Positions 16,278-50,333 of a stretch of DNA of 64,000 bases are shown one piece after another. Each line of letters starts with the position of its first letter. Within the stretch, counting starts at the first letter, position 1. Both the position numbers and the translations under genes were made by a program. The DNA is from Candidatus Beckwithbacteria bacterium (GTDB taxonomy: Bacteria > Patescibacteriota > Microgenomatia > UBA1400 > CG1-02-47-37), in the NCBI GenBank assembly GCA_026397255.1, contig JAPLVF010000013.1, positions 9,481 to 73,480 on the forward strand, read 5' to 3'. The notes under the pieces were generated by a model. It did not search any database. It was not told where the DNA came from and saw only the letters and a list, made by a program, of their open reading frames with translations.

Positions 16278-16298
16278 AGATTTCGGGCAGACGGGGAA

Positions 16299-17090: not shown

Positions 17091-17100
17091 ATTTATTATA

Positions 17101-17157: not shown

Positions 17158-17243
17158 AGACACCTGATAGAAAGACTGAAAAAGGAAAAGTTTAAGAAAT
17201 TTGTCAATAGCCGCTTGACAACGTGCTATAATGAAATTACATA

Positions 17244-17311: not shown

Positions 17312-17314
17312 GCT

Positions 17315-25076: not shown

Positions 25077-25080
25077 AAGT

Positions 25081-29601: not shown

Positions 29602-30197
29602 AATTCGCGGCCGGAATAAGAAATCGGCACTTCGTAAATTCGGATTCCCTGTTTTAAAATTTTACTGGTAACTTCCGGCTCAAAACCGAAACGGTTCTCT
29701 TTCAAATCCAGGGAAAGTAATAGTTTTTTAGGAAACAATTTATAGCCGACTTCCATGTCAGAAATAGTGGTGTTGTAAAAAAGATTTGTCAGAAAAGATA
29801 AAAATCTGTTTCCGGCTAAGTGCCAAAAAAGCATATTCCGATGCGGCCCCAAAAACCTAGAGCCATAAACAACTGCCGCCTGGTTATTTAAAACCGGGGT
29901 AAGTAATAACTTAATATCCTCCGGATCATATTCCAAGTCCGCATCCTGGATTAAGACATAGTCGCCGGTGACTTGTTTAAGGCCGGCCCGAATCGCTGCC
30001 CCTTTACCTTGATTTTTGGATAAATTAATCGTTTTAATTCCGGAAATTCCGGCAATAATTTTTTTGGTCGTATCAGTCGAACCATCGTTAACGACAATAA
30101 TTTCCGGGGAAATTTTGGTTAATTTCTTAACCTTAGTAATAATCTGACGAATTGTCCCGGCTTCGTTAAAACTGGGAATAATAACTGATAATTTCAT
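29526..30197 (-). CDS. GT2 polyprenol-phosphate sugar synthase (DPM1-like)
   Basis: MKLSVIIPSFNEAGTI...NDGSTDTT...IQDADLEYDP. Confidence 0.8.
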   Translation of the reverse strand: MKLSVIIPSFNEAGTIRQIITKVKKLTKISPEIIVVNDGSTDTTKKIIAGISGIKTINLSKNQGKGAAIRAGLKQVTGDYVLIQDADLEYDPEDIKLLLTPVLNNQAAVVYGSRFLGPHRNMLFWHLAGNRFLSFLTNLFYNTTISDMEVGYKLFPKKLLLSLDLKENRFGFEPEVTSKILKQGIRIYEVPISYSGREFCEGKKITWVDGLQAFYLLCKYRLV

Positions 30198-30730
30198 AGA
30201 CGCTGTAAATCGGGTTTAGTGGCCGAATATAACCACTGTTTGCCGTCACTGCCGGCAAACTGCATTTGTTGGGTGGAAGGATAATAAGCTTTAAAAATTA
30301 AGTCTGTCTGATGATTTAGCTTTAATCTGATAAGCTGGATTAATTCCCCGCGCCCGTCGATAACGTAAAAAGTCGGCTCCGGCGCTTTGTCCTGATAACC
30401 GATTAAGTTCTTGTCCGAGTCAAAAAACTGAAGGGTTAAATCAGACAACCGTCCGTTAGGATCAATTTCCACCCGGGCCGGAATGGTTTTGTCTTTTAAC
30501 TTAAACTGGCAAAAATCCCGGCAGTCAACCTTAATCAATAAAGGATCAATTGAGGCAAGCGGTGTTCCTAATTCCGACGCCTCATATTTTAAACTAGTAA
30601 AAGCGTGAACAAACCGGCTAAGACTAATCCGCCGGTAGCCAGAATCGACAAAAACCTGATAAAATACAAGCAGTAGAAGCCAAAGCAAGGAAAGACAAAG
30701 AAATAACCAATGGCCAACAAGTTTATTCAT
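30194..30730 (-). CDS. hypothetical membrane-anchored protein
   Basis: N-terminal TM helix then a soluble domain. No recognised motif. Confidence 0.45.
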   Translation of the reverse strand: MNKLVGHWLFLCLSLLWLLLLVFYQVFVDSGYRRISLSRFVHAFTSLKYEASELGTPLASIDPLLIKVDCRDFCQFKLKDKTIPARVEIDPNGRLSDLTLQFFDSDKNLIGYQDKAPEPTFYVIDGRGELIQLIRLKLNHQTDLIFKAYYPSTQQMQFAGSDGKQWLYSATKPDLQRL

Positions 30731-32086
30731 AAAATTATCCGATCCAAGAGAATTATATCATTAATTATCGTTTGGGCCCTGATAATTTTAGGGGTAACTT
30801 TAAGGGGATTTAAGGCCGATATTTATCCAACCGATAACAACGACGACGGCTTGTTTTATGCTTGGGCCGGAATTTCTTTCTGGGATAACCCACTTAGACC
30901 GATCACCCATTCAATTTTTGACAATAACAATCCGGCGCTTGTCTGGCGGTCACAATTTAGAGATTTTATTCCGTTAGAAAGATTTGGTCTGAAGCTGGTT
31001 GAGCCTTGGCTGGACCATCCGCCGTTAGGCGCGGCAATTATCGGCCTGCCGGCCCGATTATTGGGCTACCGGGGCTTTGAACCGATTCCCCAGATGATTG
31101 TCCGCTTGCCGGCCTTAATTGCCAGCATCTTTACTTTATTTTTAACTTATCTTTTAGGGAAAAAACTATTCGGGGAAAAAGTCGGACGATTGTCATTATT
31201 ATTTCTCGCTACCGTTCCTTATTATGTCATCAGTCAGCGGCAATCCTTCTTAGAAAATATTTTAACGCCGGTGGTTTTAGCCGCCTTAATTTTCTTACAC
31301 GAAAGCAAACTATTACCAGCGCTAATTTTGGCCTTCTTTTGCGGCTGGATTAAAGTGCCGGGTTTTGCCGTCCCTCTGATGATCGCTGTCTGGCTACTGC
31401 AGAAAAAACAACTAAAAGCGGCGATGGCTTTTGTCGGAACAGGAATTTTATCCGTAGTCACTTATCTTATTTACGGTTTTGCGGCCGACAGAAATGCGTT
31501 TTTATTTATTTTGACCAATCAAGCTGACCGAGGCGCTTTTGTTAATTCAGTCTTTGATGCAATTACTAAGCCTCATTTTTACGGCGGGTTTAACGACGGC
31601 TGGTATGTTTTAGGCTTTATCTTCAGTTTTTTAATGCTGACAAAATTTAAAAAAGAATCTTTTAAGTTTTTTAATTGGTTTTTAAGTATGTGGCTGTTGC
31701 TGCTTTTTTTAATTGCCGGCCGCTATAATAATTCGCCCTGGTACTGGTTTCCTTTGATTCCTTTTTTCTCCATTTCCTTAGGTTATTTTGCTAATCTTCT
31801 CTTAAAAAAACACCATTTGTTTTTGGTTTTACCTTTTTGGCTCTTAGGTTTAACCGGTTTTGATTTGTTAAAAATTAACCTCAACCCGAATTATTTGCGT
31901 TTGGCAACGATATTTTTCTTTATTCCATTTGGACTGAATTTAAAAAAAATTACTGTTTGGCTGACGCGATTATTGCTAATTGCTTTGGTTTGCCTAAATA
32001 TTTATGTAATCTTACGTTACCCGACGATTCACTGCCGGGAAGAAGAGTGCCTGGCGCCGACAAAAATAATTCTAAATTATGAATAA
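30710..32086 (+). CDS. polytopic membrane protein, candidate GT-C
   Basis: 458 aa with multiple TM helices. First loop contains DNNDDGLFYAWAG, an acidic cluster. Confidence 0.5.
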   Translation: MANKFIHKIIRSKRIISLIIVWALIILGVTLRGFKADIYPTDNNDDGLFYAWAGISFWDNPLRPITHSIFDNNNPALVWRSQFRDFIPLERFGLKLVEPWLDHPPLGAAIIGLPARLLGYRGFEPIPQMIVRLPALIASIFTLFLTYLLGKKLFGEKVGRLSLLFLATVPYYVISQRQSFLENILTPVVLAALIFLHESKLLPALILAFFCGWIKVPGFAVPLMIAVWLLQKKQLKAAMAFVGTGILSVVTYLIYGFAADRNAFLFILTNQADRGAFVNSVFDAITKPHFYGGFNDGWYVLGFIFSFLMLTKFKKESFKFFNWFLSMWLLLLFLIAGRYNNSPWYWFPLIPFFSISLGYFANLLLKKHHLFLVLPFWLLGLTGFDLLKINLNPNYLRLATIFFFIPFGLNLKKITVWLTRLLLIALVCLNIYVILRYPTIHCREEECLAPTKIILNYE

Positions 32087-33557
32087 GCAAAGAATTTTTC
32101 ATTTGGTGGTTTTGGGAATAGTTATGCTGGTGTCTTTCCGGATTGCCCAAGCAAGAAGCCTATCAATGCATTTCGTGGATGAAGAAGATCATATGACGAT
32201 TGGTCGACTGACCAACAGAGGATTCAAACTTTACCAGGATATCCAGTCAAACCATCAACCGATTGTCTATTTTACTTCGGCTAAACTGCAACAATTACTT
32301 AATCCGCCGAATATTTTTATGCTGGTCCGCCGCCACCGGCAGGCAATGTTTGTTTACGGAGCAATCTGGAGTTTACTGATTGTCTGGCGTTTTAAAACCG
32401 TCGGTTTAATTTTCGTAATCTTTTTTGAATTTTTAAAGTATTATCTCTTCGGCAATCTTTGGTTAATGGAGGCGTTTGCCGCATATCCGGCAGTGTATTT
32501 ATTCGGAACAATGCTGCAGGTTTGGTTTAAAAATCAAAATATTAAAAAATCCGAACTTGTCTTTTTAGGCATATGTTCGTTTTTAGTTTTGTTTAATTTG
32601 GTGCCTTTGTGGCCATGCTTAGCTTTTATGTGGCTGCTCTTTTTATTAAAAATTAAAAAGAAAATTTTTTGGATGGTAGCGGCATTATTAACATCAACGC
32701 TAATTTTTTTCACACTGTCCCGGTATTCCGTCGCTGATTGGTTTATCAGAACAGTCTATAACAACTTTGTTTATGCCGTCCCGACCATGTCACCATTGCA
32801 TGGACCCGGTGACTGGTTAAAAATGATTTTTTTCCCGTTTTTGGCCTACTTTACCCCCAACTCTTTGCAGGCGCAATTTATTAGTTTATTTTTCAGCGTC
32901 TATCTGTTGGCCGTGGTCTTTAAACGAAAATTGTTAATAATTTACCCCTTACTGCTTCTGGCTAATAACCGGGTACTATCGCCCGGCACGGTTTATTATG
33001 AAGGTTTTCATTTACTCCCCTGGCTGGGATTAATGATTTTTACTTTCAGTTTCTGCTTAAAAACAATTAAATTTAAATTTTGGCCGGTTTGGTTAATTTG
33101 GGCGATGATTTTACTGACTAATAAAAACATGGCCTATTTTTGGAAAACTGACCCAAATTATGAATACTATGTAAATTATTCCACTTTTGACGATTTAAAT
33201 TTTGCCATAAAAATAATCAACCAGGAAGGCCAAAAAATGGCGGTTTCTGTTTTAACTAATGAGGTTTTAGTCCAATGGAAAACTTTAACCAGCCCAGCGA
33301 CTAAACAAGTGGTTAGTTACGCCTGGGAGCGGAAAATTCCGGCATTAAAAGAAGAGTATAGTCGGGTTTTTAATATCAATAATCCTAATCCGCCGGAATT
33401 TATTTACGGCGAAATGGAACGTGAGTTAGTTCAAGCTAAATACCATTCTCTTTCCCGGGACGGAAAATCGACGGGATTATTTATCAGAAAAGATATTTAT
33501 GGAAAAATTACTCCTGAGCAATGGGAAGCGTTAGCGACCAGAAGATTTAGTCGCTGA
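32079..33557 (+). CDS. polytopic membrane protein with C-terminal soluble domain
   Basis: 492 aa, about 12 TM helices then a ~120 aa hydrophilic tail. Confidence 0.5.
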   Translation: MNKQRIFHLVVLGIVMLVSFRIAQARSLSMHFVDEEDHMTIGRLTNRGFKLYQDIQSNHQPIVYFTSAKLQQLLNPPNIFMLVRRHRQAMFVYGAIWSLLIVWRFKTVGLIFVIFFEFLKYYLFGNLWLMEAFAAYPAVYLFGTMLQVWFKNQNIKKSELVFLGICSFLVLFNLVPLWPCLAFMWLLFLLKIKKKIFWMVAALLTSTLIFFTLSRYSVADWFIRTVYNNFVYAVPTMSPLHGPGDWLKMIFFPFLAYFTPNSLQAQFISLFFSVYLLAVVFKRKLLIIYPLLLLANNRVLSPGTVYYEGFHLLPWLGLMIFTFSFCLKTIKFKFWPVWLIWAMILLTNKNMAYFWKTDPNYEYYVNYSTFDDLNFAIKIINQEGQKMAVSVLTNEVLVQWKTLTSPATKQVVSYAWERKIPALKEEYSRVFNINNPNPPEFIYGEMERELVQAKYHSLSRDGKSTGLFIRKDIYGKITPEQWEALATRRFSR

Positions 33558-34905
33558 TGGTGACATTGGCAAACTGATAGGCATTAGTCAGGCCGGCGGT
33601 ATCCGGAGGAGTCCAGAGTGCAGTCTGCTGAAATAAGACCGGATCAATCTTTAAATATATTAACGGGTAAAGATAGGTAGAATCATGAACTCCGGATAAA
33701 TTTATTGGCTCAGAATCTTCAGAATTTTTAGTTAATTTTAATAAATTTTCTTTTAAGCCAATCGGCAGACTGGAGGTAACTTTAACAGGATAAACTTGGA
33801 GATATTGATAGCCGGCATAAGCAACATTAATAAAATAGATTACAGCAATTATGGGTAAGAATTTTTTAATTTTAGTTAGTCCGACAGAAGCTAAAATTAA
33901 GATAATCGGCAATAAAAATAATGCCCGGGTGGAATGAGGCGCATCAATCGTTATTGCCGAGGTTAGGGGGGCTAACAGCAACCAGCTGATAAATAATAAT
34001 TTAGGCTTGGTTAATTTAAGCAAGCCGATAACCGCTAAAATAATTTCGATGGCGTAGAAATTGCCCACTCCGGGAATTTGATGCCACGGATGATTGTCTC
34101 CTTTAAAAATTAAAAATTGAGGGGAAAAAGTGTTTAAATAATTCCTGGCAGTTATTTTACCGAAATAAATATATTTATTGAAAAATAATTTGGTTTTCAG
34201 AGGATTTTGTTGATATTGAATTGTCCGCTCGCGATTATAGGTGTCGATTAAATAAGGATCGGAAAAAACCGTAATTGCCTGCTTTTGCTGGGAAACCCGC
34301 CAGATACCGGCAAAAACTCCTAGGAAACAACAAATAAACAAAACAGAGGCAATTATTCCCGGACGGTAACGCCAAAAGAAAACCAGGGAAAACAAGGGGA
34401 TAAAAATTAATGCCGAAGAATAAGCCAGACAGGCTAACAGCCAAAAGAAAAAGCCAAGGGTTTTTTTCTTTAATAACAGCCAAAGACCGACGAGAAATAA
34501 GGCCAAAGCTAAGTTTGCCTCAAAAGCAATCCGGGAATAAAAAACTGCCCAGGGATTTAATGCCAAAAAGAAACTGGCCCATATATTTTTTGAGATAAAG
34601 TAAATAGCGATAACACTAATTACTCCGGAAAGAGCTGACCAGAAACGGATGGAAAAATCATTAAGGCCGAAAAGTTTAACCGGTAAAACCGTGGCATAGA
34701 TATATAAAGGCATTTTATAATCACCGATAGATTTAAAAGCTAGCGGCCAAGAGACACCATGTTCGTCTTTCCCGGTTTTTAAAATCGAGTAGGCATTATA
34801 ACCAATGGCGGCTTCATCACGGTTTAATGCCGGCGGCAAACTATCCAAGCCGGCAAACCGGATTAAGGCAGCCATTAAAACTATTACTAAAAAGAATTTA
34901 GACAA
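33547..34905 (-). CDS. PMT/ArnT-like GT-C glycosyltransferase (GT39/GT83-like, PMT_2)
   Basis: First-loop motif NRDEAAIGYNAYSILKTGKDEHGVSWPLAFKSIGDYKMPLYIY. A DE dyad in loop 1 as in PMT/ArnT families. Confidence 0.65.
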   Translation of the reverse strand: MSKFFLVIVLMAALIRFAGLDSLPPALNRDEAAIGYNAYSILKTGKDEHGVSWPLAFKSIGDYKMPLYIYATVLPVKLFGLNDFSIRFWSALSGVISVIAIYFISKNIWASFFLALNPWAVFYSRIAFEANLALALFLVGLWLLLKKKTLGFFFWLLACLAYSSALIFIPLFSLVFFWRYRPGIIASVLFICCFLGVFAGIWRVSQQKQAITVFSDPYLIDTYNRERTIQYQQNPLKTKLFFNKYIYFGKITARNYLNTFSPQFLIFKGDNHPWHQIPGVGNFYAIEIILAVIGLLKLTKPKLLFISWLLLAPLTSAITIDAPHSTRALFLLPIILILASVGLTKIKKFLPIIAVIYFINVAYAGYQYLQVYPVKVTSSLPIGLKENLLKLTKNSEDSEPINLSGVHDSTYLYPLIYLKIDPVLFQQTALWTPPDTAGLTNAYQFANVTISD

Positions 34906-36209
34906 ATAGCCTCCTGAGGACAGACTGACGGCAGATAATAATAAAATTTTTGATTGGCTGGGAATAAACTTAAATCATTTAAATAGAAAGCAAAATATAA
35001 TTCCGGCTGGTATAACCGATTGCTAATATAAACCGGCTGAACCGGCAGTCTGTCTTTAAATTGCAGGGCTGCTTGTTTATACGGCAAAATCCAGGCAGCG
35101 GCTGACCGACCGGGATAATGAATAAAATAGTCATGTAAATAAAAAGATAAATTTAAAATTAAAGCCAGGCTAAAAATAATGCTAATAATGGTCTTAAACC
35201 GGCTCCAGCCTAAGCCAATCAGCCAGGCTAAAGGAATCATCAGATAAATTGCCCGGGAAGCATGCGGAGTTTCGTTTACTAAGGCGGCGATTGTCGGGCT
35301 TAATAATAACCAAGCCAATATCAGCCAAACTTCTTTCCGACGGTAATTTAATAAAGCCACGAGGCCGCTGACCAATAAAATTCCCTGTACCAGTAGCAGT
35401 TCACCGCCAAAGCCGGAATGATGGCGAAGATTGGGGTCGCCGCTGACTAATAAGAACTGCGGATCAAAATAAGATGAGTAATTAAGCAGAAATTTTTTAA
35501 TTCTTTCCGGCTTTCTTTCAGTTGAAGTAATTAAATTATCATTGGAAAGACGGTACTGCTGACTGGCCGCATAATAAGGCGATTTAATTAAAATAATCAG
35601 GCTGACAATAATTAAGAGCAAGCCTAAAAAAAACTGTGTTAATTTAGTCCGGCTGTAAAGCAAAAAAGCCAAGACAAACAAAACCGGGGCTAAAATTCTC
35701 AAACTAAAATAGGTGTAAATGCCTAAAATAACGGCAAGGCTGGATAAAAATACCCTTTTTTTGATAATTAAATAAACGGCTAAGACTAACCAAAATAAAG
35801 ACAGGTGCGATTCCATGCCGATGCGGCTGAAATGAATGCTCCAGGGCATAATTAAAAAGCTCACCGCTACATATGGACCAAGCCATTTAAATAACAGCCA
35901 GGCGATTCCCAATGAGGCTAATAGCGACGGCAGTCGGATGGTTAACTCGGAAATATTAATGACTTTACCCAAAATCGTTACCAGCCAAATATAAACCGGG
36001 GCCTTGTAGTCGCCGTAAGAAATAAAAATCGGCTGAAGCCAGGAATGACCGTTAAGGTCTTTACCTGTTTGCAACAACGAACGGGCATCTAAGCCAATGG
36101 CAACTTCATCCCAATAAAGGCTGACAGGAATTTTCCCAAACTGATAAAAACGGGCAAACAATCCCAGAAGCCCTAATCCAAATAAAAGAACTAACAGACC
36201 TTTTTTCAT
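34887..36209 (-). CDS. PMT/ArnT-like GT-C glycosyltransferase
   Basis: WDEVAIGLDARSLLQTGKDLNGHSWLQPIFISYGDYKAPVYIW is the paralogous motif. Confidence 0.65.
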   Translation of the reverse strand: MKKGLLVLLFGLGLLGLFARFYQFGKIPVSLYWDEVAIGLDARSLLQTGKDLNGHSWLQPIFISYGDYKAPVYIWLVTILGKVINISELTIRLPSLLASLGIAWLLFKWLGPYVAVSFLIMPWSIHFSRIGMESHLSLFWLVLAVYLIIKKRVFLSSLAVILGIYTYFSLRILAPVLFVLAFLLYSRTKLTQFFLGLLLIIVSLIILIKSPYYAASQQYRLSNDNLITSTERKPERIKKFLLNYSSYFDPQFLLVSGDPNLRHHSGFGGELLLVQGILLVSGLVALLNYRRKEVWLILAWLLLSPTIAALVNETPHASRAIYLMIPLAWLIGLGWSRFKTIISIIFSLALILNLSFYLHDYFIHYPGRSAAAWILPYKQAALQFKDRLPVQPVYISNRLYQPELYFAFYLNDLSLFPANQKFYYYLPSVCPQEAICLNSF

Positions 36210-36227
36210 TTATACTATTATTATAGT

Positions 36228-37643
36228 ATGTTAATATTTTTATTGCTTTTTGCTTTGGCGACCCGCCTGCCTCACATTTGGGGCTATAACATCCCTTTTA
36301 GTTATGACCACGGCCGGGATGCCTTGGCGGTTTTAGATTTGATAAAAAACTTTTCTTTAAAATTCATCGGGCCGTGGACCAGCATTCAGGGGGTCTTTTT
36401 CGGACCGGGCTGGTATTATTTGCTGGCTCCGCTGTATTGGCTGCTAAACGGGAATCCTTTAGCCGGACCGCTGACCATGCAGATAATCGGCCTAGTAATT
36501 ATTTGGCTGGCTTATAAACAATTCGGCATTTATGAAGCGGTTATTTTCGCCTCGGCGCCGATTTTTACCATGATCAGCGTCAGCGCTGCCAATCCTTTTC
36601 CAATGGCTTTAATCGGACTACTGATACTTATTTGCTTAAAAACCCCCAGCCGGCACCCAATAAGTTTAGGCTTATTAGTCGGTTTAGGCTTTCATTTTTC
36701 TTCAGCCTTGGCAATTTTTTATTTACTGATAATTCCGTTAATTTTATTATTCAGAAAAATTAAGTTAAATCTAATAAAATTAATGATCGGGTTGATTATT
36801 CCTTTTATCCCGCAAATACTGTTTGAAATTAAATATAATTTTTTAGAAGTTAGGTCACTAATCAGTTATTTTGCCGCCGGGGAAAGCCAGCATATTAATC
36901 CGGGGAAAATAGAAATTGTGACTAAGTCTGTTTTCCATGAATTAAGTCTGGCAGTGTTACCGGATGGCAGTTGGTTAAAATATTTAGCTTTGGGATTACT
37001 GATAACCGGAATAGTTTATTTAATTGCCAAAAGAAAAATTAATACTTTCTGGCCGGATATTGTTTTATTTATTTTAATTCCCACCATTGGTTTTTGGTGG
37101 CTTCATTACAATGTCTGGTATGTCTACGGTTTGTTACCGGTGGCGGTCGTGGCTATCGGCCGGATTTTACACTCAGTACCAAAAATTATTACTTATAGTT
37201 ATTTAGGGTTGTTAATTATCGGCGGTGTTAAAATTCCTGTGCGTCAAATCGGGAATGGCTTTTTACCGATTAAGCTTCAGGTTTTAAATTACATCTATGA
37301 TCAGGCTCAAGGTAAATTGTTCAGTTCCTACCAGTACTTACCCAATATTTACGACTATCCTTACCAGTATTTGTATTTCTGGCAGGCATTTAAGGGCAAA
37401 CCCTTACCGGTGGAATTTGCTTATAAGCCGGGAGAGATAAGTTATGTGAGCGAAAAGCCAAAATTACTAAAATTATTTCCTAAAAATAATCAACCACCTG
37501 ATATTATTTTTTTGATAATCGAAAGGCCGGAAAATATCTGGCACTACCCATTCCAATCATGGCTTAATAACATTAAATATTCAGAAATTATCAGTAAAAA
37601 AGAGTTCGGCCCGGAACTGGAAGTTTGGCAGGTAAAGCCCTGA
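36228..37643 (+). CDS. polytopic membrane protein, ArnT-like DxGR loop motif
   Basis: YDHGRDALAVLDL...GPWTSIQGVFFGPGWYY. Paralog of the 48831-50333 gene. Confidence 0.5.
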   Translation: MLIFLLLFALATRLPHIWGYNIPFSYDHGRDALAVLDLIKNFSLKFIGPWTSIQGVFFGPGWYYLLAPLYWLLNGNPLAGPLTMQIIGLVIIWLAYKQFGIYEAVIFASAPIFTMISVSAANPFPMALIGLLILICLKTPSRHPISLGLLVGLGFHFSSALAIFYLLIIPLILLFRKIKLNLIKLMIGLIIPFIPQILFEIKYNFLEVRSLISYFAAGESQHINPGKIEIVTKSVFHELSLAVLPDGSWLKYLALGLLITGIVYLIAKRKINTFWPDIVLFILIPTIGFWWLHYNVWYVYGLLPVAVVAIGRILHSVPKIITYSYLGLLIIGGVKIPVRQIGNGFLPIKLQVLNYIYDQAQGKLFSSYQYLPNIYDYPYQYLYFWQAFKGKPLPVEFAYKPGEISYVSEKPKLLKLFPKNNQPPDIIFLIIERPENIWHYPFQSWLNNIKYSEIISKKEFGPELEVWQVKP

Positions 37644-41361: not shown

Positions 41362-41362
41362 A

Positions 41363-43015: not shown

Positions 43016-44651
43016 AAACTTTAATAAACTGCTGACTATTCCTTATTGTTTCAAGAGTCGCCTTTAAAGGCAAGGCTTCTTTGTCTTTTTGATAAAGCGT
43101 TAACATTTCTTGTTCGTGAATAATAATCAGTTTTACCTGTAAAACTTTAAGTTGACTAATTGCTTCTTCAATGGGTAACGTTCGCAGAATCGAAATCGTC
43201 TTAGTCCATTCCGGTGGTTCAAAACCAGAATAACCGTTAATGAAAACGTGACGGGCGGGGAGCAAAAATGAATGATAATAGAGCCGTTCGATTTCTAAAT
43301 CGTGTAAAGGCATCACCCAAGTCTGAATCGGCAGTTCTAAAACAATGCTGGGCTGCTGAGAAAGCAGCCAGGGATAAACCGGAGGAATCTGGGTAAGAGT
43401 CGGGACTGATTTGACGAACAGCGGCAAACGAATTTCCGTTACTATTAAGATGATAATTAACAAAGAGAATAATTTTACCCACATTGGTTTTATTTTTTTA
43501 AAAACGCCTGCCAGCCAAAGTCCGATTAAAAGCGATAAGCCTAATAAAGCTAAATGGGACCAACGTTGGGGCACACGCATGCTTTTAAAACCCGGAATCA
43601 AGTAGTAACTCAGCCAGTAAGGCAAAGGTAAAGGCAGACTTAATTTTTGTTTAATGATTTGGAAATACGGACCAAAACTCATAACTAACCCGGTTAAAAA
43701 AACCAAAAAAGTGGTTTTAGTTTTAGTTGAGCGGAAAGCAGTCATTAAACTTAAGGCACCTAAAATTGAAACCACTGCCCCAAGATAAGCAGGCCAAGGG
43801 TGTTTGACAATAATTGCTTGCGCCAAAGTTTCCAGGCGTGAAGAATGTGTCGGATAGAAATATTCCAAAAAATAAGCCGAGCCGGCGAAGACATCTTTTA
43901 AAGATCGGCCAGCTTGCCAAGTCCGGGCGACCCGCAAATAGGGCTGAAAAACCAAAAATAAGACAACAAATGCCAGCAGAAAGTATTGCCCCAAGAGTAA
44001 AAAATGGGCCCGCTTAATCTGCCGTTTAATAAAAGCGATAAGGGTAAAAATACTCAAGGTAAAAATAAAAACATAACCAAGAAAAATCGTATTTAAAATT
44101 TGGCACAAGAAACAGCTTGTCACTAAAAGAGCGTATCGATGAGAAGGCTGACGGAAAAATTTTATTAAAAAATAAATTCCCAGAGGAATCCAGTACATGG
44201 TTAAAACCTGAAGATGTTCAATGGTGTCAATCTGACCAATCGAAAAAGCAAATAACGCTCCACTTATTAAACTTGCCCACCAATGTTTAGTTAACAAATA
44301 AACAACTAAGTAAACGCTAAAACCATTAAGAACAAAACTTAAAAACAGATTAAAACTGTAGGCTAAAAACGGTTGATGAAATATTTTAACGAAAGGCAGG
44401 GCTAAAATGGCGCTGGTCAGCAATGGGTCAGAAAATGCCAAAGTGTCTTTCAGCGGATAAAAAAAAGGAACTTGGAAAATTGTTCCGGGTTTAGTAGTTA
44501 AGGCTTGAATATCCCAGTTCATTAAATAACTTAAAAGGAATTCTTCTCTACCGGCAGCCGTTAAAGCGGCGGGATGTAAAACCAAGGGCCAAGTTATTAA
44601 AACCGTTAAGACAATAAAAATTAACAAACTCCAACCATGCTTAAATTTCAT
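42981..44651 (-). CDS. polytopic membrane protein, candidate GT-C
   Basis: 556 aa, about 13 TM helices, in the middle of the GT-C array. No soluble-enzyme motif. Confidence 0.5.
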   Translation of the reverse strand: MKFKHGWSLLIFIVLTVLITWPLVLHPAALTAAGREEFLLSYLMNWDIQALTTKPGTIFQVPFFYPLKDTLAFSDPLLTSAILALPFVKIFHQPFLAYSFNLFLSFVLNGFSVYLVVYLLTKHWWASLISGALFAFSIGQIDTIEHLQVLTMYWIPLGIYFLIKFFRQPSHRYALLVTSCFLCQILNTIFLGYVFIFTLSIFTLIAFIKRQIKRAHFLLLGQYFLLAFVVLFLVFQPYLRVARTWQAGRSLKDVFAGSAYFLEYFYPTHSSRLETLAQAIIVKHPWPAYLGAVVSILGALSLMTAFRSTKTKTTFLVFLTGLVMSFGPYFQIIKQKLSLPLPLPYWLSYYLIPGFKSMRVPQRWSHLALLGLSLLIGLWLAGVFKKIKPMWVKLFSLLIIILIVTEIRLPLFVKSVPTLTQIPPVYPWLLSQQPSIVLELPIQTWVMPLHDLEIERLYYHSFLLPARHVFINGYSGFEPPEWTKTISILRTLPIEEAISQLKVLQVKLIIIHEQEMLTLYQKDKEALPLKATLETIRNSQQFIKVYGDETTSVYQI

Positions 44652-46173
44652 AAAATTTAAAAATAACCTGACCGTTAAAATCGTCGATTTCCTTTACCAG
44701 TCTGGCTTTTGCGGGAGAGGCCTCTTGCGCAGCGGTCACCACCAGACTCTTCGCGGCAGGTTCGCCTTCGGGCAAAGAAAAGTTAATTTTCCCAAATTCC
44801 AAATATTCCCCCTGATCTTTTTTTACTTTTGTATTAGCCGCCTGAACTAACTGCGGATCAGTTTTAGTATAAAACCAGTAATAGATTGACGGCCGGCCCA
44901 GGCTGCGGGTGATGTAAATATGATCATATTTACCCTCATTATCAGCCACATACCCAACCATTTCCTGATAACCATACTGCCACTCTCCTGCCCATTGCCG
45001 CGGATAGATTTGATAATAGGCCTTTAAATAACGACCGGTCTCTAATATTAAAATTAAGATTGCACCGTAAATTAATAGTTTTCTGGAATTAATTAATCCG
45101 CGGGCGGTAAAAATCGTTAAAGGCACAAGCAGAGCCAAGCTTCTTAAAGCGTGCGGTGCGGCTAAAGTTAAAGCGGCCGGAACCGGCGCTAAAAACAACC
45201 AAGACAGCAGTACTAAATCTTCTGTTGTCCGTTTTTTGAGGCTCAACAATACCCCATAAAGCAAAAACGGGAGCTGGATCAGATACAATCCGCCGACTGT
45301 TTGAATCGAATGCCGCGGATTGGCATCACCGGAAATAAATAAATAGTTAAAATTAAAGTGGCTAAAATAATTGGTTAAGAAAATCCGGCCATACTGCCAG
45401 TAACGGTGGTGAATAATTCTGGGAAGCAGACCCCCGCCGTCGGCGGCAATTAATTGATTGGACTTAATAATTGGTTCAAGGGTAGAAAAAGCGCTGGTTT
45501 CATTAAAACGCTGACGGATTTGGGGAGAATTTAGTTTAACAGCAAGCGGCAGGGCTAATAAAATTACCAAAACTCCGGTGAAGAAAACTTTTTTTTGGCG
45601 AAAAATAAAAAATAGAACAATTAATAAGAGCGGCACAAAAATCCGATCGGCATGATAGGAATACAGACAAGCAGCAAAACTAATCGCTCCAGCAAGTATT
45701 TTATTTTTCAATAATAACCACACCCCTAAGACAACCAAAAATAAACCTAAATTGGCTTCAAAGCCGGCGCGGGAAAACTGCAAATGCCACGGCGAAACTG
45801 CTAAAAGTAAAGCGACCAGTAAACCCACCCGCCGATCTTTAACTAAGAAATAGACTAATAAAACTGTCAGTGTGCCGAATAAGGCCGAGGGAAAACGGAC
45901 CGCAAAAGTATTTAAACCAAAAACAGCAATCGAGGGAACGGTCGCATAAAAATAAAGACTGGGTTTGTAATCGCCAAAAGATTCAAAAGCCACCAAAGGC
46001 CAGGCATTACCATGAAAATCTTTGCCGGTTTTAAGAACTGAATAGGCATCATAGCCGATAGCGGCTTCTTCCCAATAAGGAGAGGGTGGATTAGACCCAA
46101 GATGATAAAATCTTAAAATTGCCGCCAGAATTAAAACGGCAACTATTTGTTTGACAGTTTTGTTGACAACCAT
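44641..46173 (-). CDS. PMT/ArnT-like GT-C glycosyltransferase
   Basis: YWEEAAIGYDAYSVLKTGKDFHGNAWPLVAFESFGDYKPSLYFY. Confidence 0.65.
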   Translation of the reverse strand: MVVNKTVKQIVAVLILAAILRFYHLGSNPPSPYWEEAAIGYDAYSVLKTGKDFHGNAWPLVAFESFGDYKPSLYFYATVPSIAVFGLNTFAVRFPSALFGTLTVLLVYFLVKDRRVGLLVALLLAVSPWHLQFSRAGFEANLGLFLVVLGVWLLLKNKILAGAISFAACLYSYHADRIFVPLLLIVLFFIFRQKKVFFTGVLVILLALPLAVKLNSPQIRQRFNETSAFSTLEPIIKSNQLIAADGGGLLPRIIHHRYWQYGRIFLTNYFSHFNFNYLFISGDANPRHSIQTVGGLYLIQLPFLLYGVLLSLKKRTTEDLVLLSWLFLAPVPAALTLAAPHALRSLALLVPLTIFTARGLINSRKLLIYGAILILILETGRYLKAYYQIYPRQWAGEWQYGYQEMVGYVADNEGKYDHIYITRSLGRPSIYYWFYTKTDPQLVQAANTKVKKDQGEYLEFGKINFSLPEGEPAAKSLVVTAAQEASPAKARLVKEIDDFNGQVIFKFYEI

Positions 46174-47297
46174 AATAAACCGGCCATGGGCAGGTAGCGC
46201 AAAAATAAGTAACTAAAGAATTTTAACGGCAAAGGAGAAATAATCATTAATCCCTCATTTGGTTTAATCCAAGGGGTCGTATCCACAATCAATAAAATCA
46301 AACTAAGCATCATAAAAGCTAACTGTTGTTTGATTGATTTAAACGGAAATAAAACTATTAAAGGAATCAGCCATAAATGGAACGGTTGGGAAAAAATTTT
46401 GGCGGTAAAGAAAATCGTCAGGAAAAAAATTAAGCTGATTTTGATGCTGCCGGCATAAGTATTAAGTTTATTTTTTCTGGCATAAAGTAAGACTAATAAG
46501 ATAGAGAGAGGAAAGATTACCGAGACTGCTTTTTCCGCCGCTTGGGAAACCGGTCCCTGTAACTCAAAATCCGGCGGCTGGTCGCGCCGGACTTCACTAT
46601 GAGTGAAATAATTAACCGTCTCGACGACAAAACCGGGAAAAGAAGCATACTTAATCCCCCGTTCATTGTTGTAAACAAACATCACCCCCAAAGAAGAACG
46701 AAAAATTAAAAGCGGTAAACCCCAAACTAAAATAAACCCCAATATTATCATTTTCCAGTCTTTTTTTAAGAAAATCAGTGCCAGCGGCGCGGTTAGTAAT
46801 TTAAGTGCGGTTGACAACCAAAATAAAATCCAAAAGAGTAACCGTTTAGTCATAAAAATTATTGCCAAAGCTAAACTAGCCGTAAATACCCAGTCAATCC
46901 CTTCGTAAAAAAAGTCTTTGGCAATCATCGGCGCAATCAGATAAAAACCTATACTTAAGTATTTTGACAAAGGTTTTGTTTTAAGTTTCTGAATCGTTTT
47001 AAGAATAAAGAAAAATAAAACCGTATCGAAAAGAAAAATCTGCCAACGGTAATTTTGATAATAATGACCGATGTTTAAACGGTTTAAAATCTGAGGCACA
47101 TAAAGTAAAGGAATTGTCGCCGGCGGATATTCATAAAGATGCTTGAAGTAAGGAATAATGCCGCTTTGCCACATTTCCGCATAGCGGCGGTAGTCATGAA
47201 AAACATCGGAGTAAAATGGCGGCGGAAATTTTAAAATATAAAGCCGGCTTAAAAAGAAAAGGATAAATGCCAAGATTAATAAACGATTTTGTTTCAT
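46143..47297 (-). CDS. polytopic membrane protein, DUF2029/GT87-like candidate
   Basis: SDVFHDYRRYAEMWQSGIIPYFKHLYEYPPATIPLLYVP loop with a YPP motif. Weak assignment. Confidence 0.4.
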   Translation of the reverse strand: MKQNRLLILAFILFFLSRLYILKFPPPFYSDVFHDYRRYAEMWQSGIIPYFKHLYEYPPATIPLLYVPQILNRLNIGHYYQNYRWQIFLFDTVLFFFILKTIQKLKTKPLSKYLSIGFYLIAPMIAKDFFYEGIDWVFTASLALAIIFMTKRLLFWILFWLSTALKLLTAPLALIFLKKDWKMIILGFILVWGLPLLIFRSSLGVMFVYNNERGIKYASFPGFVVETVNYFTHSEVRRDQPPDFELQGPVSQAAEKAVSVIFPLSILLVLLYARKNKLNTYAGSIKISLIFFLTIFFTAKIFSQPFHLWLIPLIVLFPFKSIKQQLAFMMLSLILLIVDTTPWIKPNEGLMIISPLPLKFFSYLFLRYLPMAGLLWLSTKLSNK

Positions 47298-48850
47298 AAT
47301 GGCGTTTTAACAATCCGGAAGGCCGGTTGACCATCAGGGAAATTAATTACTTTAATTATACCAACGGCATCAGCGGGAATTTCCTCAGGAGAACCGATAA
47401 TTAAAACGTTGCTTTTCTGGCTATCCTCTGGCCAATTAATGTTGCGAAAAAGATATTTGCTCATCGCTCCCCAGAAAACACTGGCGGCCTTTCTGTCTTG
47501 ATAGAAATAGGTAAAAATATACGGTTGTCCATAAGTGCTGGTAATAATAATTTTATTAACCTGATTTTCTTGCTGGCGGGCAAAATCTGCTGCTAACTGA
47601 TAGCCATATTGCCAAACCGGAGCAGAATAAACCGGATAAACGACAAAATAGTGATAAAGAAAATAAGCTAGATTAACGATAAATAAAATAACCACTAAGG
47701 TTCTTAATTGGGATTTTAACAAACGTAAAAAATAAACTAAACCAATAGCGGTAATGATAATTAATGCCGGTAAAACATTGTCAGAACGAAGCGGGTGAGG
47801 TACATCCCGACCAATCATGGCCGGAATCGGGCCGACAATTAACCACCAAAAAAGTAATTTTGACCAAGTTGCGGATCTTTTTTTCAGCAAATAAATTAAT
47901 CCCATCAGTAAAAACGGCGCTTCAATTAATAACAGCGGGCCGACTGTTTTAAGTTGTAACTGAGGCATAAGGCTGCTGCCGGAAAAAAGATAGGCGGGAG
48001 AGTAATGAATAATATAGTTTTTAAAGGCTTGGTTAATTAAGGAAAATTTCAACGGTAACGGTTGATCTTTTTCGTAAAAAATCGAAGTACTCTCAAACCG
48101 ATTGGCCCCTTTTTGGAAAACTATTTCCTTAATTAAGGGGATAAGTAACAATAATCCCAGGGTGACTGAACCAATCAGCCAATAACTATTTTTTTTGACA
48201 AAAATCTGCCGCCGGAAAATAAAAATTATTCCCAATAAAAATACCGGCACAAAAATTTTGGGACTGTGATAAGTATAGAAAGACAATACAAAACTTAAAA
48301 CAGAAAACAGGTAATATTTAGGTTTGGTTAAAGACTTTAAAAACAGATAAGTTCCCGATAAAACAAACATTAAGGCTAAATTAGCTTCAAAGGCCGGCCG
48401 GGATAAAATTACCTGCCAGGGAGTAATCGCCATCAGTAAAGCTGCTAATGGTGCGGTGTACGGTGTACGGAGTCCGGAGTTTAACAATAATGCATTAGTA
48501 ATCAAGTAAATCAAATAAACACTGGCAATGCCGGCGAGAACGGAAACCAGGCGGACAGAAATAGGGTTAGCTCCCAATAAACCAACAAAGGGGGCGGTTA
48601 AATAAATATAGACCGGCGCTTTATAATCACCGAAAGATTTAAAACTCCAGGGTAAATGAGTACCATATTCGTCCAGCCGCGTCTCCCAAATAGTTTTAGC
48701 ATTCCAGCCAATCGCCGCTTCATCCCAGTTTAAAGAGGCTGGATCAGAGCCTAAATGATAAAACCGCAGAACCCCGGCTAATAAAATTATCAGCAGCAAT
48801 AAAAAATTACGCTTGAATAAAAATCTCATATTAAAATTGGTATTTTTCAA
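47294..48850 (-). CDS. PMT/ArnT-like GT-C glycosyltransferase
   Basis: NWDEAAIGWNAKTIWETRLDEYGTHLPWSFKSFGDYKAPVYIY. Confidence 0.65.
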   Translation of the reverse strand: MKNTNFNMRFLFKRNFLLLLIILLAGVLRFYHLGSDPASLNWDEAAIGWNAKTIWETRLDEYGTHLPWSFKSFGDYKAPVYIYLTAPFVGLLGANPISVRLVSVLAGIASVYLIYLITNALLLNSGLRTPYTAPLAALLMAITPWQVILSRPAFEANLALMFVLSGTYLFLKSLTKPKYYLFSVLSFVLSFYTYHSPKIFVPVFLLGIIFIFRRQIFVKKNSYWLIGSVTLGLLLLIPLIKEIVFQKGANRFESTSIFYEKDQPLPLKFSLINQAFKNYIIHYSPAYLFSGSSLMPQLQLKTVGPLLLIEAPFLLMGLIYLLKKRSATWSKLLFWWLIVGPIPAMIGRDVPHPLRSDNVLPALIIITAIGLVYFLRLLKSQLRTLVVILFIVNLAYFLYHYFVVYPVYSAPVWQYGYQLAADFARQQENQVNKIIITSTYGQPYIFTYFYQDRKAASVFWGAMSKYLFRNINWPEDSQKSNVLIIGSPEEIPADAVGIIKVINFPDGQPAFRIVKTPL

Positions 48851-50333
48851 CTATGATTATGCCGAAATTAGTTTTATCAATTAATTTTTTCCCTTCAGTA
48901 AGAGGGCGATACCAATCTAAAAACCAAGGCTTGAGTTCAGCTTGATTATTTTTCATCCAGGTATCCGGCTCATAAATCACAAAATATTCCTGGGTAAATT
49001 CAGTGAAGCGCAAGTTTTTAATACCTTGTTTTTGCGCTTCCCTTTTTAATAAATATTCATAAGTGGCCGGGCGGCCATCCGGAGGCCTTGCCCAGATTGC
49101 CTGACCGTTATAATTTTTCAAAACATAGTTAACCGTTTTATTAAGCTGCATTAATGAATATCCGAGACTGTTTGGAAACAAAAATGTATCCGCCTGAGAA
49201 ACATTGGAAAAAATTATTATTGATAAAACAGCAACTTTTAAAACACGGCCGTGTTTAATAAACTTTGTTAAAGAAACCAATGAATAACTGGCAAGAAGAA
49301 GCAAGGGTAAGAATTGAGAAACTATATAATAGTCGAAAAAGAAGCCAAAATTTCCGGTATAAAAAAGATAGCAAACGATCGGGAATAATAACCATAATAA
49401 CAATAAAATTATTCCTTTTCTATCTTTGACTGAAACTTTTTTAAAGAAGTAAACAGGCAGAAAAATTATACCTAATAATAAGGCTGAGCTGACAAGAGGA
49501 AAAAACATTTTGTTTAAAATACTCGGAGTTAAAGAGTTAATAAACCATTGATTAAAAAAACCCGGCCGGGAGTGCCAAACAACTGCAAGGCTGGTTTTAT
49601 TAACGTCACTGATAAAGTTTCCCAGCAAAGACTTTGAGAGAAGATGCTCATGACGAAAATTGAAAAGTAGCTGCGGGAAAAAGGTGCTTAAAAATAACCC
49701 CAGACCTAAGAATAAATTAATCAATCCGATTTTCTTCCAAGACGGCAGCAAATAAAGAAAAATCGCTAAGGTTAAAAAGAAAGCATTGGCTAACTGCGTT
49801 TGAAGACTGAGACCCATAACTAAACCTAAAAGCGGAAAGTATTTCTTGTTGTCTTGTTTGATTTTGTAGGCTAACCAAAACATTAATAAAGAAATAAACA
49901 TCAGCGGGGAGGGATTTGACAACATTCTGGAAAAGTAAATGCCCTGACTGGAAAAACATAATAAAGCGGCAGCGAGTAAACCAACTTTTTTACCAAATAG
50001 GTCTTTCCCCAGTAAATAAATTAAATAAATACTTAATGTTCCCAATAAAACCATTTCTGTTGCCGGCCAAACAGGATTCCCCTGTCCTAAAAAATAAAAA
50101 GGTAAAATTAAATAATAAAAAAACGGCCCGAGAAAGACTCCTTCAATACCGGTAGTCGGGCCAATTAGTACGGGTTTATGATTTTTAATTATTGACTCAA
50201 CTACCAGAGCATCACGACCTTGATCGTAACCAAAATGAAGATTTAGATGTAAATTCCAAATCCGCAAAAGAAAACCAATACTTAACAAAAATATTAAAAT
50301 TGAATTTTTCTTTACGAAAATCTTAAAAGGCAT
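48831..50333 (-). CDS. polytopic membrane protein, paralog of the 36228-37643 gene
   Basis: GYDQGRDALVVESIIKNHKPVLIGPTTGIEGVFLGPFFYY parallels YDHGRDALAVLDL...GPWTSIQGVFFGPGWYY. Confidence 0.5.
   Translation of the reverse strand: MPFKIFVKKNSILIFLLSIGFLLRIWNLHLNLHFGYDQGRDALVVESIIKNHKPVLIGPTTGIEGVFLGPFFYYLILPFYFLGQGNPVWPATEMVLLGTLSIYLIYLLGKDLFGKKVGLLAAALLCFSSQGIYFSRMLSNPSPLMFISLLMFWLAYKIKQDNKKYFPLLGLVMGLSLQTQLANAFFLTLAIFLYLLPSWKKIGLINLFLGLGLFLSTFFPQLLFNFRHEHLLSKSLLGNFISDVNKTSLAVVWHSRPGFFNQWFINSLTPSILNKMFFPLVSSALLLGIIFLPVYFFKKVSVKDRKGIILLLLWLLFPIVCYLFYTGNFGFFFDYYIVSQFLPLLLLASYSLVSLTKFIKHGRVLKVAVLSIIIFSNVSQADTFLFPNSLGYSLMQLNKTVNYVLKNYNGQAIWARPPDGRPATYEYLLKREAQKQGIKNLRFTEFTQEYFVIYEPDTWMKNNQAELKPWFLDWYRPLTEGKKLIDKTNFGIIIVEKYQF

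Follow-up and report, generated by a model that had tools for sequence, protein, structure and literature searches.

An array of 13 predicted GT-C-type glycosyltransferase genes in Candidatus Beckwithbacteria that probably serves one extracytoplasmic glycosylation pathway

In a tiny-genome groundwater Candidatus Beckwithbacteria (Patescibacteria, Microgenomates group; MAG), we found 13 contiguous membrane-protein genes spanning 19.6 kb, at 30710..50333 of the 64-kb stretch of DNA analysed here (the window). Judged by family, paralogy or fold, all 13 proteins are predicted to be GT-C-type glycosyltransferase-like, and a comparison with related genomes indicates that Candidatus Beckwithbacteria inherit the block vertically as a syntenic gene set. 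The most likely role of the array is to build or decorate a complex surface glycan. Its 13 predicted GT-C-fold membrane glycosyltransferases probably represent non-redundant steps or specificities of one extracytoplasmic pathway that uses polyprenyl-phosphate sugar donors. The preliminary description of this DNA had proposed a large substrate repertoire, which is compatible with our data but is better described as non-redundant enzymes, drawn from at least eight families, that each perform a distinct step.

The uninterrupted array of 13 polytopic membrane proteins given in that description was borne out, with every ORF exactly in its place; genes are named below by their lower window coordinate. 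The ORFs encode proteins of 384–796 aa and are separated by gaps of −56 to +18 nt, and 30710–50333 contains no further ORF of at least 100 aa. Hydropathy analysis showed about 7–15 membrane segments in each of the 13 proteins, with the first segment (TM1) at residues 1–35 followed by a hydrophilic loop of 40–60 residues, whose orientation was assigned from the positive-inside rule only. Seven of the 13 (30710, 37644, 39028, 41363, 44641, 47294, and 48831) matched PMT/PMT_2, YfhO or DUF2079 directly above the Pfam cut-offs. Three more (33547, 34887, and 36228) were assigned by full-length or N-terminal paralogy in BLASTP, 46143 was tied to GT87/PIG-M via its homologs, and 42981 and 32079, both of which lack a Pfam match, were assigned from confident AlphaFold models. 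The block thus comprises at least eight sequence families: group A (five members), group B (two), one more PMT_2 protein, YfhO, DUF6311-like, DUF2079, GT87/PIG-M-like and the orphan 32079.

Group A consists of 33547..34905 (452 aa), 34887..36209 (440 aa), 41363..43015 (550 aa), 44641..46173 (510 aa), and 47294..48850 (518 aa), all on the reverse strand. These proteins are 28–37% identical over their full length, with pairwise BLASTP E-values of 1e-32 to 1e-78, confirming them as the true paralog group that had been proposed; 33547, a GT39/PMT-ArnT-like GT-C, and 34887 are 36% (E 7e-65) and 31% (E 6e-52) identical to 44641, respectively. Pfam PMT (PF02366, cut-off 22.7 bits) matched 41363 at 42.3 bits (8e-11) and 44641 at 32.7 bits (7e-8), and the same search gave no match for 33547, 34887, or 47294. 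PMT_2 matched 41363 (6e-13), 44641 (6e-6) and 47294 (1.5e-9), the last of which has PMT_2 only. An NCBI entry 100% identical to the 44641 protein, derived from a Candidatus Beckwithbacteria MAG, is labelled 'glycosyltransferase family 39 protein'. The loop-1 motif that had been written for group A matched none of the five members as a strict regular expression, since the spacing between its first two blocks falls short by one residue and single positions deviate in some members, but a slightly relaxed version matched all five, 34887 included, in the same loop (DEAAIGYNAYS...GDYK in 33547). One member has EE in place of DE and one has GDGK in place of GDYK. In the numbering of 44641, E36, G40, T49, D52, G55, F63, S65, G67, D68, K70, and Y74 are invariant in the group, and E36 and D68 are invariant across 32 group-A sequences. 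Among solved structures the group-A family profile matched ArnT (5ezm) with a marginal E-value of 5e-4, and K70, the lysine of GDYK, aligned with the KPP lysine in Cupriavidus metallidurans ArnT.

The proposed pairing of 36228 and 48831 as group B was likewise confirmed, as YD[HQ]GRDAL.V occurs exactly in both proteins, which share 35% identity over the N-terminal 250 aa (E 1e-24). The gene at 36228..37643 (forward strand, 471 aa) carries YDHGRDALAV at residue 26 and is related to PMT_2 via 48831, while that at 48831..50333 (reverse strand, 500 aa) is of PMT_2 type (2.3e-13) with YDQGRDALVV at residue 36. The further PMT_2-type GT-C-like protein, of 458 aa with about 12 TM segments, is encoded on the forward strand at 30710..32086 (1e-9; 39.2 bits against a cut-off of 26.1).

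The remaining members, on the reverse strand except for 32079, are more diverse. The YfhO-like GT-C at 39028..41418 (796 aa; Pfam YfhO 1.1e-7) has a large C-terminal external domain; its YfhO match, at 31.2 bits against a cut-off of 28.5, is confined to the C-terminal 100 residues and covers only positions 735–835 of the 835 in PF09586. By hhalign its membrane domain aligned with the 42981/DUF6311 family over 290 columns (probability 98.2%, E 3.5e-14). That family includes the DUF6311/YfhO-related GT-C-fold protein at 42981..44651 (556 aa; AF2 pLDDT 93.3), which itself has no Pfam match, PF19830 included; many of its homologs carry a precomputed PF19830 match, and some family members also have PF09586. 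The DUF2079 label of the protein at 37644..39044 (466 aa) is secure (PF09852, 4.3e-43; 148.5 bits against a cut-off of 28.2; profile positions 11–422 of 459), and its single sequence matched the 42981 family weakly by hhalign (probability 13%); we take DUF2079 to be a member of the GT-C clan in Pfam. The protein at 46143..47297 (384 aa), which had been called DUF2029-like, has no direct Pfam match even at E ≤ 1, but 32 of its 53 homologs match PF09594 (GT87, formerly DUF2029), and its family profile matches GPI mannosyltransferase 1 / PIG-M (PDB 9wno) at 2.3e-12, suggesting that it acts like GT87/GT50 enzymes and is a distant relative of them rather than a detectable member. The gene at 32079..33557 (forward strand, 492 aa) belongs to an orphan GT-C-fold family with no Pfam model, in which Asp34, located in FVDEED after TM1, is invariant in 41 sequences and is a candidate catalytic residue.

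Genes for sugar activation and donor loading flank the array. Directly upstream lies a small soluble GT2, a candidate polyprenyl-phosphate sugar synthase (50338..51081), whose best solved relatives are DPMS (5mlz, 4.9e-23) and ArnC and whose NCBIfam matches to AglJ, PpgS and dolichyl-P-hexose transferase are all below their cut-offs. It is adjoined by NDP-heptose-like sugar activation genes (51062..53996; Pfam and NCBIfam) encoding a nucleotidyltransferase (51062..51781; ManC 2.5e-39, HddC 1.7e-23), an HddA-like kinase fused to a GmhB-like phosphatase (51778..53394; 6.5e-68 and 2e-41) and a GmhA-like isomerase (53391..53996; NCBIfam GmhA 1.5e-49); the NCBIfam assignments of the GT2 and sugar-pathway proteins are all below equivalog cut-offs. 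At the other end of the array lies another small soluble GT2, from the DPMS/ArnC/GtrB class (29526..30197), with PDB matches to DPMS (1.3e-15), ArnC (2.6e-12) and GtrB (7.7e-12) and a below-cut-off NCBIfam match to AglJ (9e-36). A GacI/GacJ-like pair (24738..25767) consists of a GT2 (25081..25767; best solved relatives DPMS and ArnC) and a 3-TM DUF2304 protein (24738..25076; 7.7e-19), like these genes on the reverse strand. GacJ (DUF2304) stimulates the GlcNAc-P-undecaprenol synthase GacI, as Rv3632 does PpgS (10.1101/180810). In total, four soluble GT2 proteins in the window find their best solved relatives in DPMS/ArnC/GtrB; all four lack the membrane helices that GtrB, ArnC and archaeal DPMS have, so that a lipid-phosphate acceptor is suggested by similarity only. 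A candidate flippase of the Wzx/MurJ superfamily (58428..59885, reverse strand; Pfam Polysacc_synt_3 9e-63) is also present and may serve a separate repeat-unit pathway. No GtrA-type flippase was detected among the window ORFs scanned against Pfam, nor were a priming phosphoglycosyltransferase, an LCP ligase or an obvious acceptor protein found in the window. At least five more polytopic genes that are GT-C-like or possibly so lie elsewhere in the window (26642, 59866, 61304, 62727, 67), which contains about 18 GT-C-type genes, and most of the 64 kb is given over to glycan synthesis.

What has been observed for the array is its gene layout, the families and folds assigned to its members, their conserved motifs, and their orthology and synteny; the donor identity, flipping, acceptor and activity of every array member are inferred as follows. 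Cytoplasmic enzymes would supply nucleotide sugars, among them one resembling GDP-heptose or GDP-mannose, and the four DPMS/ArnC/GacI-like GT2 proteins, one of them with the GacJ-like DUF2304 protein, would place single sugars on polyprenyl phosphate. The lipid-linked sugars would then be flipped across the membrane, possibly by the Wzx-like protein encoded nearby. On the outer side of the membrane, each GT-C would use the conserved acidic residue of external loop 1 to transfer its sugar onto one particular site in a surface glycopolymer or glycoprotein.

The array was compared with stretches fetched from five Beckwithbacteria-type genomes (L002, L004, L005, L006, and L007), in all of which its gene order is kept. 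Group-A paralogs have one-to-one orthologs of 39–73% identity in these relatives, against 28–37% between paralogs, and a tree resolved five clean group-A orthogroups in which no genome has more than one member, 33547, 34887, 41363, and 47294 each falling in its own. Together with the shared gene order, these values indicate that the duplications are ancient. Orthologs were also found for 46143 in all five relatives (48–61% identity), for 36228 in L002, L004, L006 and L007 (44–69%), and for 30710 in L002, L005 and L007 (52–64%). The 50338 GT2 occurs at the same position in L002, L004, L005 and L007 (70–72% identity), and in five genomes it has the sugar-activation genes on one side and the array on the other; in L006, both this GT2 and the GDP-heptose-like pathway are missing at the corresponding position. 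Other genes vary: 39028 has an ortholog in L002 (69% identity), 42981 has one in L007 only among the five relatives, and none was detected for 48831 within the stretches fetched from the five or for 37644 in those of L002 or L004–L007, so that part of the set is accessory. These differences, with an extra group-A gene in L002 and the presence of so many paralogous surface-glycan enzymes side by side, are consistent with a diversification device, in which recently duplicated paralogs undergo on/off switching or recombination that varies the surface glycans. The preliminary description had indeed considered an extreme local expansion and antigenic or phase diversification, but a recent amplification is not supported, the paralogs being old and each having a one-to-one ortholog in the same order. 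Between paralogs, BLASTN detected only 70–72% similarity over 133–224 nt, confined to the motif-coding region (best matches 72% over 224 nt and 71% over 133 nt). The array has no homopolymer longer than 8 nt and no G/C tract of 7 or more, (AG)4 is its sole simple repeat, and no convincing inverted repeats were found in it, those present being imperfect, at most 38 nt long and 71–89% complementary. Phase or antigenic variation is thus not supported, as near-identical cassettes, simple repeats and long homopolymers are missing, and because the genes overlap or abut there is no room for individual switchable promoters. We regard a diversification device as highly improbable. It is exceedingly improbable that we are dealing with transporters, flippases or scaffolds without catalytic activity. 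Structure predictions cover two of the 13, 42981 and 32079, and in fold searches the best PDB matches of both were all GT-C enzymes, with transporters at TM-scores of 0.1–0.14. For 42981, the top 31 Foldseek matches in the PDB were all GT-C, among them STT3 (2.7e-8), DPY19, AftD, AglB, PglB, ArnT, Pmt4, and AftA, and transporters had a probability of at most 0.25. Every family aligned has a conserved acidic residue in its first external loop, as had been anticipated: E36/D68 in group A, D34 in the 32079 family, YD.GRD in group B, and D75, nearly invariant, in the 42981 family. This acidic residue and the Lys/Arg that matches the phosphate-binding region of ArnT are invariant within each family, which also argues for enzymes.

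The acceptor admits other readings. The PMT-like members might be protein O-mannosyltransferases, as in Actinobacteria, their multiplicity reflecting classes of secreted or surface proteins such as pilins, S-layer proteins and adhesins. Consistent with this, 41363 and 44641 match Pfam PMT above threshold and others match PMT_2, four of the five group-A members have the DE dyad in loop 1, and a DPMS-like GT2 and a ManC-like nucleotidyltransferase are encoded directly upstream. PMT_2, however, is a broad family that also takes in the polymer-modifying GacL, GtlB, and ArnT (PMC8035078), and the group-A profile matched ArnT and no Pmt chain at the sequence level. In addition, other array members are GT87/PIG-M-like and YfhO proteins, both known for lipid or polymer acceptors, or DUF2079 and DUF6311-like proteins, and the block encodes no acceptor proteins. 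The O-mannosyltransferase reading therefore appears unlikely, although it may hold for a subset of array members. Distinctly unlikely, in our judgement, is a mycobacteria-like extracytoplasmic polymer made from polyprenyl-phosphate-heptose (or -mannose), with the donor produced by the 50338 GT2 and the array including the sequence-novel GT-C family 32079. To our knowledge, such a donor has not been described so far.

With genomes of about 1 Mb, Patescibacteria (CPR) lack many biosynthetic pathways, and most cultivated members live physically attached to other microbes, which makes the cell surface central to their biology. That a genome of this kind spends about 20 kb on 13 GT-C genes, with most of the 64 kb devoted to glycan synthesis and a core conserved in the lineage, suggests an elaborate, uncharacterised surface glycan. 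For studies of the CPR envelope, the array provides a defined list of candidate enzymes, including the orphan GT-C family of 32079, and the 50338 GT2 may be an enzyme that makes a heptose- or mannose-lipid donor. A further lesson is that orthology should be checked before paralog arrays are called variation devices.

The proposed pathway of non-redundant GT-C steps can be set against known systems. Group A shares the acidic loop-1 dyad with ArnT (GT83) and with bacterial and eukaryotic PMT (GT39), and its members 41363, 44641 and 47294 also share PMT/PMT_2 Pfam domains with them. The group nevertheless stands apart as a five-fold paralogous clade whose loop 1 bears a distinctive 40-residue signature and whose C-terminal external domain is short; as far as we know, lipid A synthesis is not expected in this organism. 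The envelope GT-C set of mycobacteria and corynebacteria comprises Pmt, PimE/GT87, MptA-C, AftA-D, and EmbA-C, with Ppm1 and PpgS making donors. By analogy, the array appears to resemble the series of GT-C enzymes that build mycobacterial arabinogalactan and lipomannan: both have many differing GT-C enzymes, polyprenyl-P-monosaccharide donors and a polymer outside the membrane, the last being proposed here, and the array has GT39-like and GT87-like members with DPMS/Ppm1-like and PpgS/Rv3632-like donor modules in the window. Unlike the mycobacterial genes, which are scattered, those of Beckwithbacteria are contiguous, and they show no orthology to Emb or Aft enzymes at the sequence level; the sugar likely differs as well, given the heptose-like pathway.

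In the known Gram-positive systems, CsbB/GtcA/YfhO, GtlA/GtlB, and GacI/GacJ/GacK/GacL, one GT-A and one GT-C add a single side-chain sugar (PMC8035078; 10.1101/180810), and the mechanism of such multi-component transmembrane glycosylation systems has been described (PMC8035078). The window likewise encodes together a GT-A-type GT2 akin to C55-P-sugar synthases, a flippase candidate of the Wzx type and GT-C proteins, as judged from sequence similarity and gene context, along with a small DUF2304 helper, and the array has YfhO-like and PMT_2-type GT-C proteins whose external loop carries an acidic motif. In contrast to those systems, it has 13 contiguous GT-C genes of at least eight families, about 18 in 64 kb, and only four candidate donor synthases; its GT2 proteins are soluble, and its host comes from a lineage of Patescibacteria whose genome is very small. 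[quoted passage not shown]

The array between 30710 and 50333 consists of exactly 13 ORFs of 384–796 aa, and no further ORF of at least 100 aa was present in the ORF listing within these limits. Adjacent ORFs, designated here by their start coordinates, overlap by no more than 56 nt or are separated by no more than 18 nt; the larger overlaps are probably due to over-extended starts, because each ORF was called from its earliest possible start codon. Four strand blocks can be distinguished: a plus-strand pair (30710 and 32079), a minus-strand pair (33547 and 34887), a single plus-strand ORF (36228), and a minus-strand block from 37644 to 48831 that extends unbroken through 63827 as a 26-kb co-directional run. 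Hydropathy analysis revealed about 7–15 membrane segments in every one of the 13 proteins and a pattern common to all of them, in which TM1 at the extreme N-terminus is followed by a hydrophilic loop of 40–60 residues and then by a helix bundle. These results confirm the uninterrupted array of 13 polytopic proteins that the preliminary description had recognized. At the array edge, a 178-aa single-pass protein without a family match is encoded divergently (30194..30730, minus strand), and a 370-aa relative with 30% identity is located inside the array of Beckwithbacteria RBG_13_42_9 (L005:17927-19039).

Direct Pfam matches above the gathering score were obtained for PMT_2 in 30710, 47294, and 48831, for both PMT and PMT_2 in 41363 and 44641, for DUF2079 in 37644 (4e-43), and for YfhO, at the C-terminal end only, in 39028. 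In all-against-all BLASTP, 33547 and 34887 were full-length paralogs of the PMT-positive proteins and, as had been proposed, formed group A together with 41363, 44641, and 47294 (28–37% identity over the full length, E 1e-32 to 1e-78); the proposed group B was likewise recovered, 36228 being 35% identical to 48831 across the N-terminal 250 residues (E 1e-24). While 46143 had no direct Pfam match, GT87 (former DUF2029) was matched by 32 of its 53 homologs in an exhaustive HMMER search, and its family profile matched GPI mannosyltransferase I (PIG-M, PDB 9wno) at 2.3e-12. No direct Pfam match was found for 42981 either, and DUF6311 was often present in its homologs. An AlphaFold model of 42981 built from 39 sequences (pLDDT 93) was searched against the PDB with Foldseek, and the top 31 matches were all GT-C enzymes: STT3 (2.7e-8), DPY19, AftD, AglB, PglB, ArnT, Pmt4, and AftA. 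The first transporters in this list appeared with a probability of at most 0.25 and a TM-score of 0.14. The YfhO-like 39028 was connected to the 42981 family by hhalign (probability 98.2%, E 3.5e-14), and a single DUF2079 sequence matched the same family weakly (probability 13%). An EpsG match of 33547 (25.7 bits, below the cut-off of 30.1) and Agl23 and STT3 NCBIfam matches far below their cut-offs were set aside for assignment. A transporter fold had been named beforehand as the outcome that would speak against GT-C enzymes; since this was not borne out, all 13 members are still read as GT-C enzymes, with 37644 included by way of DUF2079, which we take to belong to the GT-C clan.

A five-way alignment of group A identified E36, G40, T49, D52, G55, F63, S65, G67, D68, K70, and Y74 as invariant in loop 1, and E36, D52, D68, and K70 were still invariant after the addition of 27 homologs from other genomes. 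The loop-1 signature previously assigned to group A is real in a slightly relaxed form, which fits all five members, and not in the motif string as written, whose regular expression fits none of the five; the spacing of its first two blocks lacks one residue, and single-position deviations occur in some members. The group B motif, by comparison, matched exactly as written in both members. When profiles of group A were compared with PDB sequences, the five-sequence profile had TetR as its sole match, which was judged spurious, and the 32-sequence profile returned ArnT together with TetR 6el2, which matched the C-terminal domain (E 1.3e-3) and was treated as chance. The most unusual array member is 32079, an orphan GT-C-fold protein. 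Just 85 homologs were found, none of which carried a Pfam domain, and their named sources were all Beckwithbacteria or unclassified Patescibacteria bacterium. Profile–profile comparison by hhalign detected no match of this family to group A or to the 42981 family. Its model was confident (pLDDT 91), and Asp34 of the FVDEED motif, right after TM1, was invariant in 41 sequences of the family.

An NCBI entry named 'glycosyltransferase family 39 protein', encoded on a 359-kb contig of a Candidatus Beckwithbacteria MAG, is 100% identical to the 44641 protein; this lineage belongs to the Microgenomates group within the Patescibacteria group. A search for related loci with the YfhO-like protein returned only two loci, and synteny was taken from long contigs encoding homologs: Patescibacteria MAG JBBTRT01 (L002), a 777-kb JGI contig (L004), Beckwithbacteria RBG_13_42_9 (L005), a 589-kb ENA contig (L006), and a Rifle groundwater contig matching a protein of Beckwithbacteria GW2011_GWB1_47 (L007). 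The core order GT2(50338) - A(47294) - 46143 - A(44641) - A(41363) ... B(36228) - A(34887) - A(33547) - 32079 - 30710 was kept in all five relatives, with one or more core elements missing or replaced in individual ones and with ortholog identities of 39–73%. The fetched stretch of L005 contained no clear ortholog of 33547 or 32079, and L006 lacked the GT2 and a clear 41363 ortholog. Within the fetched stretches four members were accessory: 48831 and 37644 were found in none of the five relatives, 42981 had an ortholog in L007 only, and 39028 in L002 only, the variable positions being filled by other polytopic genes. In L005, the 47294 ortholog is split into ORFs of 245 and 221 aa (L005:7496-8925), representing either a pseudogene or an assembly/frameshift error. 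An extra 361-aa polytopic ORF lies between the 33547 and 32079 orthologs of L002 (L002:18018-19103); its N-terminus, judged by eye only, resembles acyltransferase-3-type sequence and could indicate O-acylation of the glycan.

In a neighbor-joining tree, group A separated cleanly into five orthogroups, none with more than one member from any genome, and L002 contributed one additional paralog that stood alone; this indicates that the duplications are older than the divergence of these genomes and that each copy was kept. The 'extreme local expansion' suggested earlier is not supported in the sense of a recent amplification. Antigenic or phase diversification, also suggested, found no support in BLASTN and repeat scans, which showed no evidence of gene conversion or cassette exchange and none of slipped-strand switches or invertible promoters. 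At the DNA level, the paralogs matched each other in BLASTN only at the motif-coding region, with 72% identity along 224 nt and 71% along 133 nt. The longest homopolymer in the array is 8 nt, no G/C tract of at least 7 nt occurs there, (AG)4 is its sole simple repeat, and its inverted repeats are short and imperfect.

The window as a whole (64 kb) is a glycan island. The array is directly preceded on the same strand by a 247-aa soluble GT2 (50338), a sugar-1-phosphate nucleotidyltransferase (51062), a 538-aa fusion of an HddA-like kinase and a GmhB-like phosphatase (51778..53394, minus strand), and a GmhA-like isomerase (53391); these four genes resemble a GDP-D-glycero-D-manno-heptose route set, with all NCBIfam scores below the equivalog cut-off. 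The HddA/GmhB fusion is common to the window and L005; separate adjacent genes are found in L002:1523-3074, L004:4405-5956, and L007:2592-4194, and these three loci have a second nucleotidyltransferase ahead of the isomerase. In L006:4973-7197, the usual place before the array, the heptose-pathway genes and DPMS-like GT2 are missing and a Y1 transposase, a short-chain dehydrogenase, and a metallo-beta-lactamase-fold protein are present; a second Y1 transposase follows that array. The best solved relatives of the 50338 GT2 were archaeal dolichol-phosphate mannose synthase (5mlz, 4.9e-23) and ArnC, and the same was true of three more small soluble GT2s, 29526 at the other array edge, 25081, and 22964. 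The 228-aa 25081 overlaps by 4 nt a 112-aa DUF2304 protein with three helices (7.7e-19), forming a putative GacI/GacJ-like or PpgS/Rv3632-like pair (24738..25767, minus strand). The DUF2304 family proteins GacJ and Rv3632 stimulate the GlcNAc-P-undecaprenol synthase GacI and PpgS, respectively (10.1101/180810).

Outside the array, five polytopic proteins are encoded on the minus strand, with Pfam matches to PMT_2 and PMT (61304..62722), weakly to PTPS_related (59866..61317), to PIG-V (GT76) at the borderline (26642..27784), and to DUF6798 (67..1629), and with no Pfam match for 62727..63827, giving about 18 GT-C-like membrane proteins in the 64 kb. A 59866-type gene is located inside the array in L005. 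The window also contains a Wzx/MurJ-type protein (58428), GT4 and GT2 enzymes, methyltransferases, three epimerase/dehydratases, and, among GT4 glycosyltransferases and SAM methyltransferases, a radical SAM/SPASM protein (2728..3792, minus strand) that may be a sugar- or peptide-modifying enzyme. No GtrA-type flippase, priming phosphoglycosyltransferase, or LCP ligase was detected among the window ORFs scanned against Pfam. Two peptidoglycan-related proteins, one VanW-like and the other a YkuD L,D-transpeptidase, adjoin the glycan genes (8789..10080). The island is interrupted at 10699..17938 by a non-glycan stretch that encodes a PolB-like 3'-5' exonuclease, an N6/N4 DNA methylase, DUF4417, DUF3800, and an XRE-type HTH protein adjoining an M78/ImmA-like peptidase, includes the lowest GC of the window (0.34 at 12–14 kb), and resembles an insert of the mobile or defence type.

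The array genes are already deposited, mostly under generic names ('glycosyltransferase family 39 protein', 'hypothetical protein'), and our limited literature search, in which absence is no proof, found no publication describing the array. All components are within the known framework of GT-C enzymes and polyprenyl-phosphate sugars, and the interest lies in three points: the GT-C gene density, given a genome size of about 1 Mb; the orphan 32079 family; and the conserved linkage of heptose-pathway genes, DPMS-like GT2, and GT-C genes, a hint that the lipid-linked donor may carry heptose or mannose. The flanking GT2s would make the donors, which would be flipped and used by the array members, each presumably active, to build or decorate a surface glycopolymer, a glycoprotein, or both as acceptor. 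A live alternative for some of the members is that the PMT-like subset O-mannosylates proteins.

In multi-component transmembrane glycosylation systems, a GT-A enzyme, sometimes with a small membrane helper, makes a C55-P-sugar, which a flippase of the GtrA or Wzx type carries to the outside, and a GT-C enzyme of YfhO, PMT_2, or unassigned type puts the sugar on a wall polymer via an acidic motif in an external loop (PMC8035078). The array locus has corresponding parts, whereas its scale and arrangement differ, with 13 contiguous GT-Cs of at least eight families and about four candidate donor synthases. In the mycobacterial envelope, many GT-Cs (Pmt, PimE, Mpt, Aft, and Emb) build polymers outside the membrane from polyprenyl-P-mannose or -arabinose. 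On the strength of its match with the multi-component systems and of this mycobacterial set, which appears to be its closest functional analogy, we interpret the array members as non-redundant steps, probably linkage- or acceptor-specific.
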